Positions 11,194 to 41,047 of a stretch of 64,000 bases of DNA are shown piece by piece (position 1 is the stretch's first letter; every line of letters begins with the position of its first letter). The position numbers and the translations under genes are program-made. The DNA is taken from assembly GCF_013315695.1 (NCBI RefSeq), contig NZ_CP054353.1. The stretch is one strand, 5' to 3'. The DNA comes from Escherichia coli. Lineage in GTDB: Bacteria; Pseudomonadota; Gammaproteobacteria; Enterobacterales; Enterobacteriaceae. Below the pieces are notes generated by a model, which was given only the letters and a program-made list of their open reading frames with translations, was not told the origin of the DNA and searched no databases.

Positions 11194-12507
<1,314 letters not shown>

Positions 12508-12576
12508 TTAAATGGGAGATGTGGCCACAGCCTGCGACCACAGGGATACAGTAACAACATTACCGCAACGATAACA

Positions 12577-13920
12577 TTAACGGTAGCGTTTTATGGGGCT
12601 ATTTTGATCCTGTTCAGCCAGCCAGGCGAGCTTTTCGCCAATCTTGCCTTCAAGGCCCCTGTTTGTCGGGAAATAATAGCGTGTTTGTGCTATTTCCGGC
12701 GGGAAATAAACCTCACCGGCAGCATAAGCGTTTGCTTCATCATGAGCGTAACGATATTCCTGCCCGTAGCCCATTTCCTTCATTAATTTCGTCGGCGCAT
12801 TACGCAAATGAACCGGCACGTCATAATCCGGACGTTCGCGAGCATCGGCCAGCGCGGCTTTAAACGCGGTGTAGACAGCGTTGCTTTTTGGCGCGCAGGC
12901 GAGGTAAACAATCGCCTGAGCAATGGCGCGTTCACCTTCCGCCGGGCCAACGCGAGTAAAGCAATCCCAGGCCGCAATTGCCACCTGCATCGCTCGTGGA
13001 TCAGCATTACCCACATCTTCCGACGCTATCGCCAGACAGCGACGCGCGACATATAACGGATCGCCTCCGGCAGTAATAATTCGCGCATACCAGTACAGCG
13101 CCGCATCGGGTGCGCTACCACGTACCGACTTATGCAGTGCGGAAATGAGATCGTAAAAGCGATCGCCTTTGTTATCAAAGCGGGCGCTACGTTCACCGGC
13201 GATTTCGGTCAGTAATTCAGGTTTCAGGACCCGCTTACCGCTATCATCGACTTCGGCCATATCCGCCATCATTTCCAGCGTATTTAACGCCCGGCGCGCG
13301 TCGCCATTCACCAGTTCAGCAATGGCGCGTCGTGTTTCATCTGGCAGAACAATATCCTGACCACCATAGCCACGGGTCTTGTCTTCCATCGCCTGAGTTA
13401 GTACTTGCTCAATATCCTTTGTACTGAGGGATTTCAGCAGATAGACACGGGCACGGGAAAGCAGTGCCGAATTAAGCTCAAATGACGGGTTTTCAGTGGT
13501 TGCGCCAATAAAAGTGATGGTGCCGTCTTCAATATGTGGCAGAAATGCATCCTGCTGGCTTTTGTTGAAACGGTGAACTTCGTCAACAAAAAGAATAGTG
13601 CGGCGACCTGCATTGCGGTTTTGCCGAGCGCGCTCAATCGCCTCGCGAATCTCTTTCACGCCAGAGGTGACAGCAGAAATACGTTCCACATCAGCGTTCG
13701 CATAGCGGGCAATCACTTCAGCGAGGGTTGTTTTGCCGGTACCCGGTGGCCCCCAGAGGATCATAGAATGCAAATGCCCGGCTTCGATAGCGCGCGGCAA
13801 CGGCTTCCCCGCAGCCAGCAAATGTTGCTGGCCGATATACTGTGCTAAATTTTCTGGCCGCATACGCGCGGCCAGAGGTTGAAAAGTATTATCCGAAAAA
13901 TCGAGCGACAGATTGCTCAC
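12577..13920 (-). CDS. rarA: replication-associated recombination protein A (AAA+ ATPase)
   Basis: 447 aa, Walker [10 protein letters not shown]; synteny serS-rarA-lolA. Confidence 0.95.
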
Positions 13921-29328: not shown

Positions 29329-29355
29329 AAATTAACTACACCATTAACTACACCG
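29329..29355. repeat. 27-bp direct repeat AAATTAACTACACCATT(A/G)ACTACACCG, left copy (right copy 40368-40394); candidate integrase binding or att sequence
   Basis: two copies, one mismatch, each followed by clustered CGAACAA motifs (29356-29395 and 40400-40510). Confidence 0.5.
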
Positions 29356-30575: not shown

Positions 30576-30610
30576 TGTGCCCCCATCGTTCTGATAGTCT
30601 GGTGTCGTCG

Positions 30611-30840
30611 GGTCCTTCCTGGAATTATGGCCCGTTACGGGGCGGCGACCTCGCGGTTTTTCGCTATTTATGAGATTTTTTGAGGGGGTGGTTGTTGTTT
30701 AATTGTTTGGTATATCTAATTGATAAGTAAGGTAAAAATAAAATAAATACAACAACCTTACGATGTATTTTGATGTCATTAATGTGAAAAAATTCAATGA
30801 TATCAAATGGTTTTGTAAAAACACATGGTTGTTGTATCGC
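30611..30840 (+). other. lambda-type cos site, copy 1 (cosQ-like, cosN GGGCGGCGACCT at 30640-30651, cosB-like region pointing rightward)
   Basis: GGGTCCTTCC..GTTACG-GGGCGGCGACCT-CGCGGTTTTTCGCTATTTATGAG closely matches remembered lambda cos; three GGTTGTTGT repeats (30690, 30749 inverted, 30828) as candidate TerS sites. Confidence 0.6.
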
Positions 30841-31008
30841 GTATTTGATGGCGTAACAGAAAGTGATTTTTAACTTTACCGCTCTGTAACTACGGATTAT
30901 TCCATGCTGGCACGGAGAACGGCTACGGCATGACGCCACCCAGCCTATACAGCACAGTAAAGCCGATAAATTGTTAATCACGCGCAGCAATGCGTGTGAT
31001 TTTTGCAC

Positions 31009-31206
31009 ACTTCCGGTTAACGGGTACGATGTCCGGTTTTAGTGTCTGTTTTTTGCGCATGTCCGGTTCATAGAAAGCATGTTTTTATATTTTTCATATG
31101 GTTAACTTGCAGAGAAACCGGACATGGATCCCGGAAAATTTTCATAAATAGTGAAAACGCGCGAGGTCGCCGCCCCGTAACGGGTCCATATGCCGGAAAG
31201 GACCCG
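31009..31206 (-). other. lambda-type cos site, copy 2, inverted (cosN on the minus strand at 31164-31175, cosB-like region pointing leftward)
   Basis: minus strand reads GGGTCCTTTCCGG..CCCGTTACG-GGGCGGCGACCT-CGCGCGTTTTCACTATTTATGAAAATTTTCCGG, near-identical to remembered lambda cosQ-cosN-R3; three ATGTCCGGTT repeats (31029, 31059, 31116 inverted). Confidence 0.65.
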
Positions 31207-31208
31207 TA

Positions 31209-31233
31209 AAAAAAAGCCGGATTTCTCCGGCCT
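31209..31233 (-). terminator. rho-independent terminator ending the island capsid operon
   Basis: minus strand GGCCGGAGAAATCCGGC followed by T8, directly after the 137-aa gene stop. Confidence 0.55.
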
Positions 31234-31237
31234 TGTC

Positions 31238-31651
31238 TCAGATGGTTTTCAGTATGCGATCGATGTCGCCGTCATCGCCCTGGTTTCTGCCATCGTACGC
31301 CATGCCAGCTGATACGGCTTGCGGGCTGTGCATGTCCATAAAGTTTTCAAAGGCTGCGGTAAGCTCTGGTGCAACCTTTGGGCGCTCCTGCTCTATGGTC
31401 ATGTTCAGGATTTCACGAGCATTATCGACGCTAATACATGGCACGTTTGCCATTGCACGTAACAGCGGCTGATAGTCGTTATGTTCATGAAGCGCCATAA
31501 TCGCATCAGCGCGCGGCTTGTCCTGTTCTTCCAGTTTGTTGAGTTGATATACGGCCTCGTAGGTTGATAAACCTCTGTCAGCCATTGCCCGCGCTTCTGC
31601 TTTAAATTTACTCGCCAGCGGTAGCGCCATGATGCTTTCATTCGTTGCCAT
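31238..31651 (-). CDS. hypothetical protein (137 aa), last gene of the capsid operon
   Basis: ATG with AGGGGAA SD; no family recognised; candidate packaging-redirection factor by position only. Confidence 0.5.
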   Translation of the reverse strand: MATNESIMALPLASKFKAEARAMADRGLSTYEAVYQLNKLEEQDKPRADAIMALHEHNDYQPLLRAMANVPCISVDNAREILNMTIEQERPKVAPELTAAFENFMDMHSPQAVSAGMAYDGRNQGDDGDIDRILKTI

Positions 31652-31663
31652 CGTTTCCCCTGC

Positions 31664-31999
31664 TTATCGCGCCAGCGGCTGAACGGATACGCCAGAACCC
31701 GCAAAGGCGGCGCATTTTTTCGCGTCAGTGTCGGCGCTCTCAGGCCAGTTTACGGCGGCGATATTAAATATCCCCGTCTTGTAACACTGTGCTGATTTCT
31801 GCTTTGACGTGTCCACGGGGTACGAAGTCAGATAAACAGCCTTGCCAGATTCCTGACCATCCCACGGCTTAAACTCGCCATTGTCCGCCAGCATCAGCGG
31901 GGTAAATTCCTGAATAACGCCAGCATCAGCGGCAAAATGTACCAGCGTCGTGGATACCTGCTGACTGCCTGCAAATAACTCAATGTATGGAGTGTCCAT
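31664..31999 (-). CDS. head decoration protein, lambda gpD-like
   Basis: 111 aa; shares TPLMLD, WDG, YK(S/T)G.F, WPE, AFAG motifs with remembered lambda gpD (110 aa). Confidence 0.65.
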   Translation of the reverse strand: MDTPYIELFAGSQQVSTTLVHFAADAGVIQEFTPLMLADNGEFKPWDGQESGKAVYLTSYPVDTSKQKSAQCYKTGIFNIAAVNWPESADTDAKKCAAFAGSGVSVQPLAR

Positions 32000-32011
32000 A
32001 GAATCCCCCCG

Positions 32012-33067
32012 TTAACCAATTTTGACGGTAACAAATTTGCGAATATCTGCCGGAACCGGCTGCGGTGCGCTGTGCGTCTGCACGTACTCAATCGCCGGAT
32101 CGCCGTCCTCAATCCAGTTTTTCGGGTAAAACATGTTTTGCGTTGCGCCCGTTCTTACCGCTTCCTGTTCCAGGATCGCACCATAGGCCACCAGCCCTTT
32201 ATTGTTGGTGTTGCCCAGGACCAGCAAATCAGGCTCAAGGAAATATTTTTCTGTGCCGTCGCTGTCAGTGTATTTGCCGGAATAGACGATAAGGGCCAGA
32301 TCACCAAGATAGCCTTTAAAGCTCACCACTTCGCCCAGGTTTTTACATGCCAGCTCTGCGGCGGATTCTGAACCACGGGAGAGATCGTACAGTTCACGGA
32401 ATTTTTTAAAGCTGCGTAACATGCGCCATACATCAACGCCCATAATCATGACGTTTGCGGGGCAACCTGCCTGATCTGCGTATAGCTCAATGTCATAGAT
32501 TGGGTCGTGTATGTCTTTGTCCTGCTCTGACCATTTTTTACCGTCGGCCTGCTCTATGATGTTTTTTTCCGGTATCTTCCAGTCGATTTCATAGCGCTCT
32601 ATGCCTTCGCCCTCAATGATGTTTTTTCCGGTCGTTACCGCATTTACCGCCAGCCATTCCACGCGCGCTTTAATGGCGTTTATCTGGCGGCGCATGTTGC
32701 CAGTAATCAGGCGCATACGGCGGTAGGTAGGGTCGTTAAGCTGTGCTGGATCTTCTCCAGCCATGCGCATTATTGTTTTTAATGGATCGATTTCGTGTTT
32801 TGGCTTCATGTAGCCAGGGCGAATAATGCTTGTTTCGTACCCTTTATCGCGCTGAACCTGGCTACCCACCATAGGCGAACAAAACGCCGACATAGTGACT
32901 TCTTCAATATCCAGGTTATCTAACATGATGTCCTGTGTGTTGAATGTCGCCACGTTCGGGAAAAACAGCGCGGTAAACAGCGGACTGAATTTAAATTCCG
33001 CAATATCCTCGCGATTCAGGTACGCAAAAAGCTGGTTAGTGTTAAGTGCTATTGCTTTTACTGTCAT
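32012..33067 (-). CDS. major capsid protein, lambda gpE family
   Basis: 351 aa; collinear similarity to remembered lambda gpE (FKF.PLF..LFF, PGY(V/M)KPKHE, DP.YRR.R, YPKNW..GDPA, SAP); start overlaps the upstream stop (TAATG). Confidence 0.85.
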   Translation of the reverse strand: MTVKAIALNTNQLFAYLNREDIAEFKFSPLFTALFFPNVATFNTQDIMLDNLDIEEVTMSAFCSPMVGSQVQRDKGYETSIIRPGYMKPKHEIDPLKTIMRMAGEDPAQLNDPTYRRMRLITGNMRRQINAIKARVEWLAVNAVTTGKNIIEGEGIERYEIDWKIPEKNIIEQADGKKWSEQDKDIHDPIYDIELYADQAGCPANVMIMGVDVWRMLRSFKKFRELYDLSRGSESAAELACKNLGEVVSFKGYLGDLALIVYSGKYTDSDGTEKYFLEPDLLVLGNTNNKGLVAYGAILEQEAVRTGATQNMFYPKNWIEDGDPAIEYVQTHSAPQPVPADIRKFVTVKIG

Positions 33068-33273
33068 TATTCACCCCCGTGAACCTGATTCATACCCAGC
33101 GCCGCGCGTAAATAGGCGCGTACCTGCCAGCCTGTTGACGGCTCAACCATCGCCAGCGGATCAAGTCCTGCCGCAATGCCTGCTTTTACGTTCTGCTGGT
33201 GGCGTTCCTTGAGCGCCTTCACGATGTCGGGGCTTATGTACACCGAAACACCGCCTTTTTTCTCTTCAGCCAT
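33067..33273 (-). CDS. hypothetical protein (68 aa), first gene of the capsid operon
   Basis: ATG with AAGAGG SD; translationally coupled to the capsid gene. Confidence 0.5.
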   Translation of the reverse strand: MAEEKKGGVSVYISPDIVKALKERHQQNVKAGIAAGLDPLAMVEPSTGWQVRAYLRAALGMNQVHGGE

Positions 33274-33302
33274 AGTAAGAAATTCCTCTTTGACTTAAAA
33301 AA

Positions 33303-33357
33303 TCATAACTGGATGTTCATCCAGTTATGATTATAATCATGATTGCATTTTGTGCAA
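33303..33357 (-). promoter_or_regulatory. promoter of the island capsid operon with a 28-bp palindromic operator
   Basis: minus strand TTGCAC-N16-TATAAT immediately followed by perfect palindrome TCATAACTGGATGAACATCCAGTTATGA. Confidence 0.5.
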
Positions 33358-33527
33358 TGATATTGAGTTGCGTTGCAAATTATGAAATTATTATCCCGAT
33401 CATGTGTGTCAGTGCACCAAAAAACCTCATATGCAAAAGCCCGATAAGCCACCTCTGACCTTATCGGGCTTTTTTTGGGCGCAAAAAAGCCGGATTGCTC
33501 CGGCTGTGTGGTGTGGTTCTGGTATTC

Positions 33528-37241: not shown

Positions 37242-37562
37242 TTATCCCCGATTTGAATCAGTATTCGCTTTCTTTATAGCATTTAATGCATTTGTGGCAT
37301 TTTCAATGGTGCACCGTAACGAAATATCAAACTGCCCAAGCATTGCCAGTAACAAACCGATATTACCCATATCAATGCGCATGGCCTTTTCGTCATATTC
37401 CTCATTTTCTGACGCATACCACATCAGGCTACCAATTGACGCAATACCCATTGATATATTGTCAGTAGCCCCATCCGCAGCGGAATAAACTTTTTTAGCA
37501 ATATCATGCTCACAGTTAAAATGCGGATTAATCAGGTACTGGTAATTGGTCATGTCAGGCAT
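37242..37562 (-). CDS. hypothetical protein (106 aa)
   Basis: ATG start; first gene of the leftward operon. Confidence 0.45.
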   Translation of the reverse strand: MPDMTNYQYLINPHFNCEHDIAKKVYSAADGATDNISMGIASIGSLMWYASENEEYDEKAMRIDMGNIGLLLAMLGQFDISLRCTIENATNALNAIKKANTDSNRG

Positions 37563-37839
37563 GGCACACCCCCTGACGAATACGGGCGGCGAATACCATC
37601 ACGCAGCCAGCCGGGGATTGCTGGCGTGCTTCCTGTTCGCTGCTGGCCTCAATGGTAATCACGCGCGGTTGTGCCGTGCTCAGGGCGATAAAACGCCAGA
37701 TGTATTTATTCAGGTTGTGCGAGTCCCGCCCTTGCGGGTGTGTGGTATGATTTAACATAGCTACCTCGATACTGTTGCTATCGTTGGTTGTTAGACGCCC
37801 TGCATGTGTTGCGAGCACTGCGGGGCGTTGCTCTTTCAG

Positions 37840-37885
37840 GTGTATTTCACCTTTGCTTTTTAATTTACTCACTGGTGAAATACAC
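37840..37885. promoter_or_regulatory. operator-like perfect 12-bp inverted repeat GTGTATTTCACC-N22-GGTGAAATACAC in a divergent promoter region
   Basis: lies between the divergent 106-aa gene and the small + strand gene. Confidence 0.45.
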
Positions 37886-37951
37886 TTCAAGCCTTTTTTT
37901 ATCATTTTTTTTGCGTATACTGACATACACCAATTTTTAGGAGATCCAGAA

Positions 37952-38131
37952 ATGGCAACTGGTGCAAAGAACGCAAAATCACAAATGACAACTGTCAGAA
38001 TCCCACATGAAGTAATGGATGATATTGAGCAACTTAAAGAACCTGGCGAAAGTACCGCTGGTTTTTTAGTTACTGCCGCAAAAGGCGAGATCAAACGCCG
38101 CCAGCGCCGCAAGGCCAAAGAATCAGAATAA
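37952..38131 (+). CDS. small DNA-binding protein, possibly ribbon-helix-helix (59 aa)
   Basis: ATG with AGGAGA SD; TTVRIPHEVMDDIEQL resembles an RHH beta-strand/helix; basic C-terminus. Confidence 0.4.
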   Translation: MATGAKNAKSQMTTVRIPHEVMDDIEQLKEPGESTAGFLVTAAKGEIKRRQRRKAKESE

Positions 38132-38188
38132 TCACTATCAGCGCCGTGGCGTGAGGTACTCCGGCGCATTGCTTTACAGGTCAGTACT

Positions 38189-38398
38189 ATGAGCAAAAAA
38201 CACCGATCAGCAGATGAGATTTTTGCAGAACAACGAAGATTGCTTTTGCAAAGTATCATTTCACGCCAGCAAGAGAAGGCGCGAGCTAAACAAATGCCAC
38301 CAAATACAGAACCAGCGCCTACAAGATTTGCGCTTGATGATTTTCTCGATAAACACCCCAGGGTAATGAAAGCAAACAAAAACCGCCCACCAGCCTGA
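38189..38398 (+). CDS. hypothetical protein (69 aa)
   Basis: ATG start; followed by a terminator at ~38441-38468. Confidence 0.35.
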   Translation: MSKKHRSADEIFAEQRRLLLQSIISRQQEKARAKQMPPNTEPAPTRFALDDFLDKHPRVMKANKNRPPA

Positions 38399-38440
38399 TA
38401 GCGGCTATCATCCCCGTGCTTATGTTTAGTGTTTCCAAAC

Positions 38441-38468
38441 TGGCGACCTCCCAAGGTCGCCTTTTTTT
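38441..38468 (+). terminator. rho-independent terminator after the rightward small-gene pair
   Basis: GGCGACCTCCCAAGGTCGCC followed by T8. Confidence 0.55.
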
Positions 38469-38488
38469 TATGTGCCATTGTCACCACC

Positions 38489-38698
38489 TCAAGCGGCCTT
38501 GCCTGAATTAATGCGTTCGCGGTTTTTGACCCACGCCACAACCTCAGACTTAACCCAGCCAACAGAACGACCGCCGAGACTGATACGGGAGGGGAAGCGG
38601 CCCTGCTTTTCCATCTCGTAACGAGTTGTGCGGCAAACGCCTGTTAGCTCTCTGCATTCTTTTTCGCGGATTACGCGATCTTCATTTATTTCACGCAT
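38489..38698 (-). CDS. alpA: AlpA-family transcriptional regulator / excisionase-like
   Basis: 69 aa from ATG 38698; helix-turn-helix pattern (CRELTGVCRTTRYEMEKQGRFP...GGRSVGWVKSEVVAWV) and position next to int. Confidence 0.65.
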   Translation of the reverse strand: MREINEDRVIREKECRELTGVCRTTRYEMEKQGRFPSRISLGGRSVGWVKSEVVAWVKNRERINSGKAA

Positions 38699-39107: not shown

Positions 39108-40346
39108 TCAAGAATTTTGGGAGTAAATTCGCGGGGTCATAACAACGATTTTTTCATCATTGTTCTGGAGAAGCTCGAGACGCTCAACCCATAGATTAAG
39201 AGCGTCACGTTTTGCATCGAGATAACGGGAGTGATTATAGACTCGTTGCATTCCTGGCAACTGGTGCGCGGTTAGCTGCTCCACTACATGAGGATCCACG
39301 CCTAAATCGTTCAGCATCGTTGTAAACGTGTGCCGGATGTCGTGCAACGTCCAGGGGGCTTGATTAATGCGTCTGTGTGCCGTTCTTCCGTACTCTGATA
39401 CAGATGATTGCCCTTTCAGTTCTCCGAGTAATAAGCCCGTGTGTCGGTTCTGCTCCACCAGCTTCGTTACGAACGGCAAGATCGCTTCCGGTATTGGCCT
39501 GAATATTGCTACCTTCGTTTTGCTGTGTTCTTTCGGCACAGTCCAGAGCATTTCTTTAAAATCCCATTCCTGGACCTCAGAGCGTCTTAGCTCAGTGGTA
39601 CGGCATCCGAAGACAATCAGGAGGCGAATCAGGGCGCTGTAGTACGGTGTGTAAATTTTTTCATCCAGGGCGCGTAGTAATTCCCCAAGCTCCTTGTTTG
39701 TTAGTACGCGCTCGCTTATTTCTGCTTTTTTCCCAACATCACCTACAACCATATCATCTAGAACGTTGGTAATTGCGTAGCGTCGTTTGCGGCAGTACTT
39801 AAGCGCCTGCTTGCATACCTGTAACAAAAATCCTGCTGATACCGGATTACGCATAGCAAGCTGATCAAAACAGGTCAGCCAGTGGCGTAGCTCGCATTTT
39901 TCCAGCGGCATAGCACCAATATGGCTGATTATGTGTGTATTGATCCGGCTTTTCAGAGATTCGTAATCTGTGCGCTTTTCCTTCGCGTACGATTCAAGCC
40001 AGTAAGTGAGCGCTTCCTTAACCGTAACAGGTGATAACGCTTCCTGTACGGTGTGATTAAGCTCATGGCGTGGATTTTTACCCTCAGCAAGCCAGGCGCG
40101 ACACTGCGACGCTTTTTCCCTGGCTGCTTTCAGGCTCAAATCTGGATAATTTCCCAGCCTCAGACGTTCAGGGGCTACCTTCCTGCCTGTTCCGGCCCTG
40201 TAAGTGAAATACCAGGTTAACAGGCCATTGGTTGAATGCCTTACGCTAAGGTTGCCACCATCATTAAAAAAGGTGTTTTTTGTGGTTGGTGATCCGCTTA
40301 ATTTTCGTAAAAGAGTGTCGCTAAGTCTATGAATTGCCCTGCTCAT
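39108..40346 (-). CDS. tyrosine site-specific integrase (P4-type)
   Basis: 412 aa; C-terminal catalytic motifs (R..TELRRSE, HDIRHTF, Y near the C-terminus); at the island edge. Confidence 0.9.
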   Translation of the reverse strand: MSRAIHRLSDTLLRKLSGSPTTKNTFFNDGGNLSVRHSTNGLLTWYFTYRAGTGRKVAPERLRLGNYPDLSLKAAREKASQCRAWLAEGKNPRHELNHTVQEALSPVTVKEALTYWLESYAKEKRTDYESLKSRINTHIISHIGAMPLEKCELRHWLTCFDQLAMRNPVSAGFLLQVCKQALKYCRKRRYAITNVLDDMVVGDVGKKAEISERVLTNKELGELLRALDEKIYTPYYSALIRLLIVFGCRTTELRRSEVQEWDFKEMLWTVPKEHSKTKVAIFRPIPEAILPFVTKLVEQNRHTGLLLGELKGQSSVSEYGRTAHRRINQAPWTLHDIRHTFTTMLNDLGVDPHVVEQLTAHQLPGMQRVYNHSRYLDAKRDALNLWVERLELLQNNDEKIVVMTPRIYSQNS

Positions 40347-40750
40347 GTTTCGAATTTCCGGTCATCAAAATTAACTACACCATTGACTACACCGAGCATC
40401 GTACAAGGGCGAACTGTGACGAACAAGGGCGAACAAGAAAAACGAAATTATCCTTTATAATCATAGAAATAAATGAGATACCTACACCATGACGAACACC
40501 CACGAACACTAACTGATAAATAACTATCATCTATCGTTGGCATCAGCGACATCTGTCACATTCCTGTCAATAGCGTTAACTGCTTCAAATTTTTGATTCA
40601 TACCTGCCCCCTGGCCCCTGTCAAATGCTTGACGGCTCGCCCTAATTCTCTAAATTGTATTTCTAGAGTTGGCGAGGTTTTGAACAGCCCCCTCTCTGAC
40701 CCCGGTTTATTCCATCTTACTTGTATAAGATTTGCGAAGGATGTCGAAGC

Positions 40751-40975
40751 ATGGAAAAGGGTACTGTTAAGTGGTTCAACAATGCCAAAGGGTTTGGTTT
40801 CATCTGCCCTGAAGGCGGCGGCGAAGATATTTTCGCTCATTATTCCACCATTCAGATGGATGGTTACAGAACGCTAAAAGCTGGACAATCCGTTCAGTTT
40901 GATGTCCACCAGGGGCCAAAAGGCAATCACGCCAGTGTTATTGTGCCCGTCGAAGTAGAAGCGGCAGTCGCATAG
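40751..40975 (+). CDS. cspD: cold-shock-like protein CspD
   Basis: 74 aa MEKGTVKWFNNAKGFGFICPEGGGEDIFAHYSTIQMDGYRTLKAGQSVQFDVHQGPKGNHASVIVPVEVEAAVA. Confidence 0.95.
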   Translation: MEKGTVKWFNNAKGFGFICPEGGGEDIFAHYSTIQMDGYRTLKAGQSVQFDVHQGPKGNHASVIVPVEVEAAVA

Positions 40976-41047
40976 CTCTTCTGTCTCATTGTGTACATCC
41001 TAAAGGCAAAATGCCAGCCCGATCGGCTGGCATTTTTATCTCAAAAA

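Follow-up and report, generated by a model that had tools for sequence, protein, structure and literature searches.

A four-gene operon on the minus strand of Escherichia coli contig NZ_CP054353.1 (assembly GCF_013315695.1), at positions 31238-33273 of the 64,000-nucleotide stretch analyzed here (the window), is almost certainly the late (morphogenesis) operon of a classical phage-inducible chromosomal island (PICI) of the EcCICFT073 type, with genes orthologous to c1498-c1501 of that island. The operon encodes a small protein, a major capsid protein, a co-evolving head decoration protein and a protein that homology identifies as a truncated phage scaffold. We tentatively propose that these proteins are a self-matched shell kit that would build, or join in building, full-size heads on parts supplied by a helper phage. 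The operon itself, its comparison with the satellite capsid homologue Ccm, the negative outcome of that comparison and a crystal structure of the capsid family are already known. Three elements are new in this analysis: the scaffold identity of the 137-residue protein and its c1501 orthologues, of which we found no earlier description; the finding that the satellite shell genes are monophyletic and stand in a derived order; and an island variant that lacks rpp and carries a phage-type cosB. About one in nine complete E. coli genomes has the operon, O157:H7 and uropathogenic lineages included, and purifying selection has preserved its proteins in a lineage confined to satellites, although the only experiments published revealed no phenotype for the capsid or decoration gene.

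The late operon and its island

The operon begins with a gene for a 68-residue protein (33273-33067), which shares one base with the 351-residue major capsid gene (33067-32012) in a TAATG overlap. The 111-residue head decoration gene (31999-31664) and the 137-residue scaffold gene (31651-31238) follow, each after a gap of 12 nucleotides. A check of the four minus-strand open reading frames (ORFs) confirmed exactly the coordinates given in an earlier interpretation made from the DNA letters, hereafter the sequence-only reading. A G-rich Shine-Dalgarno sequence lies ahead of every one of the four start codons, and an intrinsic terminator (31234-31213, minus strand), a 9-bp stem followed by a T run, closes the operon 3' of the last stop codon. 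A lambda-type cos site comes directly after this terminator on the same strand. The claim that four coupled genes run toward a cos region and end at a terminator is therefore borne out by the ORFs, their junctions, the hairpin and cosN. The arrangement is not due to chance, because the same 2-kb block is found in 597 of 5,426 complete E. coli genomes, and 591 of these have 80% or more of its length. In all copies examined each of the four ORFs is intact, without a single pseudogene. PADLOC defence models gave zero matches among the four proteins, and an Rfam scan returned nothing in or around the operon.

The operon is part of an 11,056-bp island inserted between clpS and cspD and bounded by a 17-bp direct att repeat, AAATTAACTACACCATT, whose two copies start at 29329 and 40368. 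All island genes lie on the minus strand and point in one direction. A tyrosine integrase (39108-40346, minus strand; phrog_1, 8e-68) is located at one end, and the island also encodes an AlpA regulator (Pfam, 2e-15), a DUF927 primase/helicase (phrog_1139, 1e-189), an SSB, a PerC-like regulator and a 93-residue protein of unknown function. An ORF inventory and a PHROG scan of all island ORFs revealed no portal, prohead protease, large terminase, connector, tail or lysis gene. The architecture is that of a classical Gram-negative PICI: the size is within the range of about 10-15 kb, and the att repeats, the integrase at the end, AlpA, the replication module and the lambda-type cos sites are all present. 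Rpp, which is encoded by many members of this group but not all, is missing from this island.

The closest characterized relative is EcCICFT073. The operon is 94.6% identical in nucleotide sequence to the CFT073 copy, and its proteins show about 93-99% amino-acid identity to those of EcCICFT073 (95% for the capsid protein). In that island c1498, c1499, c1500 and c1501 encode 68, 351, 111 and 137 residues (supplementary table, PMC6092414), and c1499 and c1500 have been described as a putative capsid protein and a head decoration protein (PMC6092414). Together, the identity and the matching protein lengths establish the window genes as c1498-c1501 orthologues. The two islands share the four genes, their order, the protein lengths, the terminator and the arrangement of cos1 and cos2, as well as the overall succession of int, alpA, replication genes, ssb, perC and late operon. 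They differ in three respects. EcCICFT073 occupies the phoQ/roxA site, whereas the island described here is at clpS/cspD; the former has an annotated 584-residue 'DNA primase family protein', the latter a DUF927 replicase; and in place of the rppA of EcCICFT073 there is here a 454-nucleotide segment whose initial portion is a phage-type cosB. Experiments have demonstrated only for EcCICFT073 that a helper phage induces the island, which then replicates and is transferred at high frequency (PMC6092414). Capsid genes are present in 21 of 29 reference Gram-negative PICIs (PMC10111431).

Capsid, decoration and scaffold proteins

The 351-residue protein matches Pfam PF03864 (Phage_cap_E; 3e-49) over residues 26-349 and phrog_29 (7e-107), and by blastp it is 43% identical to lambda gpE and 45% identical to gp7 of phage 21. 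In the Protein Data Bank (PDB) it matches 3BQW at 6.6e-229 and lambda gpE (7VI9) at 8e-81. Entry 3BQW ("putative capsid protein of prophage", 351 residues) provides a crystal structure for the family to which the window protein belongs, and the structure prediction suggested by the sequence-only reading is thus redundant. On this homology the protein is a gpE-family major capsid protein with the HK97 fold. The ratio of nonsynonymous to synonymous substitution rates (dN/dS) of its gene is 0.12-0.28.

The 111-residue protein matches Pfam PF02924 (HDPD; 1e-17) and phrog_49 (4e-27), along with the structures of SHP (1TD0, 6e-13) and gpD (1C5E, 1e-9). Its identity is 37% to gpD and 43% to SHP, and these matches assign it to the gpD/SHP family of head decoration proteins. 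The N-terminal arm of the island decoration proteins is PICI-specific and unlike that of phage gpD and SHP. With a dN/dS of 0.03-0.12, the decoration gene has the lowest value among the four. The Pfam, PHROG and PDB matches uphold the gpE-like and gpD-like identities assigned in the sequence-only reading. A 463-residue predicted protein from a metagenome contig (P0069) contains both Phage_cap_E and HDPD domains, in keeping with the E-then-D order; this is either a true fusion of capsid and decoration protein or an artefact of read-through or assembly.

The 137-residue protein is related to the scaffolds of lambdoid phages. Blastp aligns it with gp6 of phage 21, the Nu3 equivalent, at 37% identity over 83 residues (8e-10), and phrog_53, a protease-scaffold family, is matched at its C-terminal end. 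A phmmer search of 1.84 billion representative proteins with this query reached a 195-residue, three-repeat Nu3-like protein (E 7e-5), and hhalign comparison of the PICI family with Nu3/gp6 aligned residues 4-122 to 66-186 of 200 (probability 97.3%, E 2e-11). The island protein corresponds to the last two helical 'Tri-box' repeats and the C-terminal tail (FENFMDMHSP...DRILKTI), in which the Nu3/gp6 tail signature FExFMxxHSP...L is kept; the first ~65 residues of the phage scaffold are missing. In the AlphaFold2 model, residues 1-107 are helical, with a predicted local distance difference test score (pLDDT) above 85 to about residue 90 and of ~60 beyond, and a disordered tail with a short terminal helix comes after them. 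This predicted shape is compatible with a scaffold. No Pfam, NCBIfam or PDB-sequence match was found and a fold search returned no similar solved structure, so the identification draws on sequence and profile homology, which points to a truncated Nu3/gp6-type scaffold. The gene has a dN/dS of 0.15-0.27.

In its setting and length the island gene departs from Nu3 and gp6. The phage scaffold genes are nested in frame in the 3' part of an S49 prohead protease gene, C in lambda and gene 5 in phage 21, upstream of D and E, and their products have about 200 residues with three repeats. The island gene, by contrast, stands alone downstream of E and D, encodes 137 residues, and belongs to an island without a protease. 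The sequence-only reading had stated that the island lacks portal, protease and scaffold; the absence of the first two holds, while homology of the 137-residue protein to Nu3/gp6 speaks against the third. It had also named the 68- and 137-residue proteins as candidates for scaffold-like or terminase-redirecting functions. The scaffold-like suggestion stands for the 137-residue protein, given its homology to the C-terminal two-thirds of Nu3/gp6. For a terminase-redirecting role of either protein there is no evidence; terminase redirection is the task of Rpp, and this island does not encode Rpp.

The 68-residue protein matches phrog_3255, a family of unknown function (8e-37), and its homologues are confined to Enterobacteriaceae and are all annotated as hypothetical. 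AlphaFold2 predicts a small two-helix protein (pLDDT 76; helices 15-34 and 47-58), for which there was no NCBIfam, PDB-sequence or significant fold match. A reading as an Arc/CopG-like ribbon-helix-helix protein was unsupported, as was equivalence to gpW, which has the same length of 68 residues; blastp detected no similarity to lambda W or phage 21 gp3. The dN/dS of the gene is 0.25-0.6. The capsid, decoration and 137-residue genes are under purifying selection.

Comparison with phages indicates how far the satellite genes have diverged. The island and lambda or phage 21 share homologous families, at 43-46% identity for the capsid, 37-43% for the decoration protein and the 37% noted above for the C-terminal region of the scaffold, and have the same cohesive-end sequence. 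However, the phage order is scaffold-D-E and the island order E-D-scaffold, the island scaffold is a separate gene without the first repeat rather than one nested in a protease gene, and the island, which has no portal, protease, terminase or connector gene, encodes proteins that fall in a clade of their own. Decoration precedes capsid, after the protease/scaffold gene, in lambda, phage 21/PhiR12, Vibrio phage ST2-1pr and Burkholderia phage AH2. The E-then-D order is thus real in the island and reversed relative to these phages, as the sequence-only reading had claimed. Every island homologue examined, from E. coli, Salmonella and Serratia and with 50-92% capsid identity, has E before D, downstream of int, alpA and the replication genes, and in most of them cos and a gene for an Rpp-like (Phage_Nu1) protein come next. 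None of the capsid proteins in 50,697 phage records was more than 47.6% identical to that of the island. Neighbour-joining placed the PICI capsid proteins in a single clade whose sister group is lambda and phage 21, and sequences within this clade differ from one another more than lambda does from phage 21.

A PICI embedded within a helper prophage (L013) provides a direct comparison. It sits inside the helper capsid gene E (773-1042 and 12127-12891), which is 96.8% identical to lambda E, and the capsid protein of the inserted island is only 42% identical to the helper gene that the island splits. Two further PICIs, L009 and L015, are embedded in the head-tail or tail region of prophages. The third gene of the module varies by clade: it is Nu3-like in the clade of the window, encodes a Phage_AlpA-domain protein in a second clade, and is absent from Salmonella island L014. 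In the second clade (L012, L013, L015 and L016) its product has 114-145 residues (for example L012:9402-9746), and no 68-residue gene was called upstream. Since the third gene varies in this way, E and D make up the conserved core. Taken together, these sequence comparisons argue for long satellite residence and a long-standing satellite function rather than recent capture, which is contradicted by the identity of at most 48% to phage capsids and by the PICI-only clade in the tree.

It is accordingly highly improbable that the genes are passengers or back-up copies, recently captured from a helper prophage and now redundant or decaying: capture of helper genes in late zones is documented for some PICIs, with a back-up role suggested (PMC10111431), and a cos region 94% identical to that of phages indicates that exchange with helpers occurs, but the capsid divergence just described, including the 42% identity to the helper gene split by an embedded PICI, the single clade with its derived gene order, the purifying selection and the intact ORFs all speak against it.

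A proposed role in head assembly and its alternatives

In the reading that we tentatively favor, the operon would be transcribed after helper induction from its own conserved promoter and leader. The mini-scaffold would chaperone the island capsid protein onto the helper portal and protease, DNA packaging by the helper terminase would then make the shell expand, and the island decoration protein would cement it in this expanded state. Heads built in this way would be full-size (T=7-like) rather than small and would carry about four copies of the 11-kb island as concatemers. Such a kit would make the island partly independent of the helper's shell proteins. That particles are in fact built from satellite-encoded shell proteins on a helper portal, protease, terminase and tail is a more doubtful step, although conceivable.

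Several observations are consistent with a shell kit. The scaffold fragment keeps the C-terminal part common to Nu3 and the protease, and the whole set is kept together in satellites. The lambda decoration protein binds only to the expanded capsid lattice. This property, the strong constraint on D, which exceeds that on the other genes, and the lineage-specific N-terminal arm, which contacts the capsid, fit a real lattice of island capsid and decoration proteins (E'/D') better than a decoy. The lack of a laboratory phenotype may be explained if the kit is redundant with the shell proteins of lambda, phage 80 and CFT073 phage 4. If the shell-kit reading is right, the kit would matter mainly with natural helpers such as the 21-like phages whose cos the island copies. 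Classical E. coli PICIs would then represent a semi-autonomous step between satellites that take over complete capsids and the capsid-forming PICIs (cf-PICIs), which take only tails. Satellites that build part of their own heads would change views of helper dependence, helper range and satellite evolution, and the question also bears on engineered PICI delivery particles.

The island would be, at most, an intermediate form with respect to cf-PICIs. It shares with the cf-PICI EcCIEDL933 the int, alpA and rep backbone and a major capsid protein of its own. Whereas cf-PICIs have a protease, portal, head-tail connectors, HNH, TerS and TerL and make small capsids, the island encodes only shell, decoration and scaffold proteins, and has no portal, protease, connectors, TerS or TerL beside its capsid gene.

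Several points weigh against the shell-kit reading. Deletion of c1499 or c1500 leaves transfer of EcCICFT073 by the resident helper, phage 4, unchanged, and islands in which c1499 is replaced by cat transfer efficiently with phage 4, lambda and phage 80; the authors reported no c1499 phenotype (PMC6092414). Because these deletions have no transfer phenotype, any structural contribution is dispensable with those helpers. Neither proteomic nor electron microscopic evidence of island proteins in particles was found in the searchable literature, and no later paper that assigns a function to the operon was found in the literature searched. Some PICI clades have E and D without a Nu3-like gene, with an AlpA-domain protein or nothing in its place, so the scaffold is not an obligatory partner. 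Nor does the island encode a protease that could clear its scaffold. Finally, the island capsid protein is about 43-47% identical to helper gpE, which makes its fit to the helper portal and protease uncertain.

Among the alternatives to the shell kit, helper-specific interference is one that we consider unlikely. Here the shell proteins would poison or divert head assembly in particular helpers, lambda and phage 80 not among them, for instance through sequestration of portal or protease. Satellites commonly have several interference mechanisms each (PMC6893505), the scaffold fragment could compete with helper Nu3, and with rpp missing from this island another interference function could matter. 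The published genetics of EcCICFT073 nevertheless assign interference elsewhere. When each gene after ori was expressed from pBAD, c1503 (RppA) alone blocked lambda, and deletion of c1503 fully restored plaquing (PMC6739421). The c1499 and c1500 deletions did not relieve lambda interference (PMC6092414). It is also hard to square a poison with the finding that constraint is tightest on the decoration protein.

A non-structural role, in which the proteins would act as decoys or triggers for capsid-sensing defence or as regulators of the helper or the island, is quite unlikely. That the HK97-fold protein is kept at full length, alongside a decoration protein matched to it and a scaffold domain, points to assembly, and, as described above, none of the four proteins matches a PADLOC defence model. 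What such a role would account for is the absence of a laboratory phenotype in transfer or interference; it would also suit an operon with its own conserved control region, and PICIs often have defence cargo, such as Abi_C in L012.

The sequence-only reading had proposed that the capsid protein, by analogy with Ccm, redirects the helper to small capsids. In this model the capsid protein, alone or with the truncated scaffold, would force the helper to make small heads holding one or two island copies, in the manner of Ccm of SaPIbov5 or of CpmB of SaPI1, which serves as an alternative internal scaffold. The analogy has some foundation: Ccm too is an HK97-fold capsid paralogue encoded by a satellite with cos packaging, small heads go along with a satellite capsid homologue in SaPIbov5 and perhaps in PmCI172 (PMC6893505), the 11-kb island is roughly a quarter of the lambda genome, and the scaffold is ~65 residues shorter than Nu3/gp6. 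PmCI172, a Pasteurella element compared here by description, is, like the window island, a Gram-negative PICI with a capsid homologue in its late zone, but its small heads are made with a Mu-like helper. Ccm, in turn, has no partner decoration or scaffold gene and is unrelated in sequence beyond the shared fold, and it causes small isometric heads and strong interference, neither of which is seen with the EcCICFT073 orthologue.

The Ccm analogy had in fact already been raised and tested for EcCICFT073 (PMC6092414). With lambda as the helper, only DNA of phage size was packaged, and CFT073 with its native helper gave no band of PICI monomers (PMC6092414). A suspicion that the c1501::tetA marker had broken the operon was dropped: the published primers map tetA immediately after the c1501 stop codon, and the operon was therefore intact in these tests. 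Packaging in large capsids as concatemers is also how specialists describe these islands (PMC6893505). Given these negative results on an island whose capsid protein is 95% identical (PMC6092414, PMC6739421), redirection to small capsids is very unlikely, and the proposal is not supported.

Control region, cos sites and neighboring features

A promoter and terminator scan of the sequence upstream of the operon identified a conserved control region (33274-33388, minus strand) with promoter-like hexamers, the palindrome ATTGCA-N5-TGCAAT (33342-33358) and a leader hairpin of 14 bp followed by a T run (33301-33332; free energy -19.8 kcal/mol, z -4.9). This block is kept across PICIs as far as a Salmonella element whose capsid protein is 67% identical. 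The leader hairpin is maintained through compensated sequence changes in Salmonella island L014 and is weak in L009 and L011. The control region has no counterpart in the phage collection, and for this reason no link to a lambdoid Q/qut-type late promoter could be made. Its conservation and sequence features suggest dedicated regulation, as an operator or an attenuator. Farther upstream, the PerC-like gene is followed by two terminator-like hairpins in a row (33505-33488 and about 33470-33440, minus strand, in the region 33437-33505), which appear to insulate the capsid operon from upstream island transcription.

Downstream of the operon, cos1 (cosQ/cosN; 31135-31206, minus strand) is the packaging start site, with cosN, GGGCGGCGACCT, at 31175-31164. 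It is followed by a helper-type cosB (31029-31134, minus strand) containing three CCGGACAT-type repeats and nearly identical to the PhiR12 cos region. An inverted second copy of cosN at 30640-30651 is part of cos2 (30609-30680, plus strand), a 72-nucleotide inverted repeat that is 83% complementary. The same inverted arrangement is found in islands L001, L002 and L006, and two functional cos sites have been published for EcCICFT073 (PMC6092414). A stretch of 184 nucleotides (31029-31212, minus strand), running from just past the operon terminator through cosN and ~135 nucleotides beyond, is 94% identical to the cos region located between Rz and Nu1 in the 21-like Escherichia phages PhiR12.

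The island differs from EcCICFT073 and most other relatives between the two cos copies. There, L001, L002, L006 and L007 carry an rpp cassette of ~800 nucleotides, whereas the window has an AT-rich segment of 454 nucleotides (30681-31134) with no credible ORF. This rpp-less variant occurs in only 13 of the 5,426 complete E. coli genomes. Because of its 94% identity to the PhiR12 cos region, the site could be recognized by the terminase of a PhiR12-like helper without Rpp, and the rpp-less island may be packaged directly by a 21-like helper terminase in this way. The closest phage relative of the island capsid protein is also that of PhiR12 (47.6-47.7%).

Two minor observations concern other parts of the window. 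A 335-residue ORF with a TTG start (37555-38562, minus strand) matches the repressor family phrog_6196 (1e-55) over only its last ~90 residues; the real gene is probably about 93 codons long and the long ORF an over-call. Just outside the island, 40646-41039 on the plus strand, placed at cspD by synteny with locus L002, resembles the Rfam cspA thermoregulator at a score below threshold (41.6 bits, with a gathering score of 78; E 5e-8).

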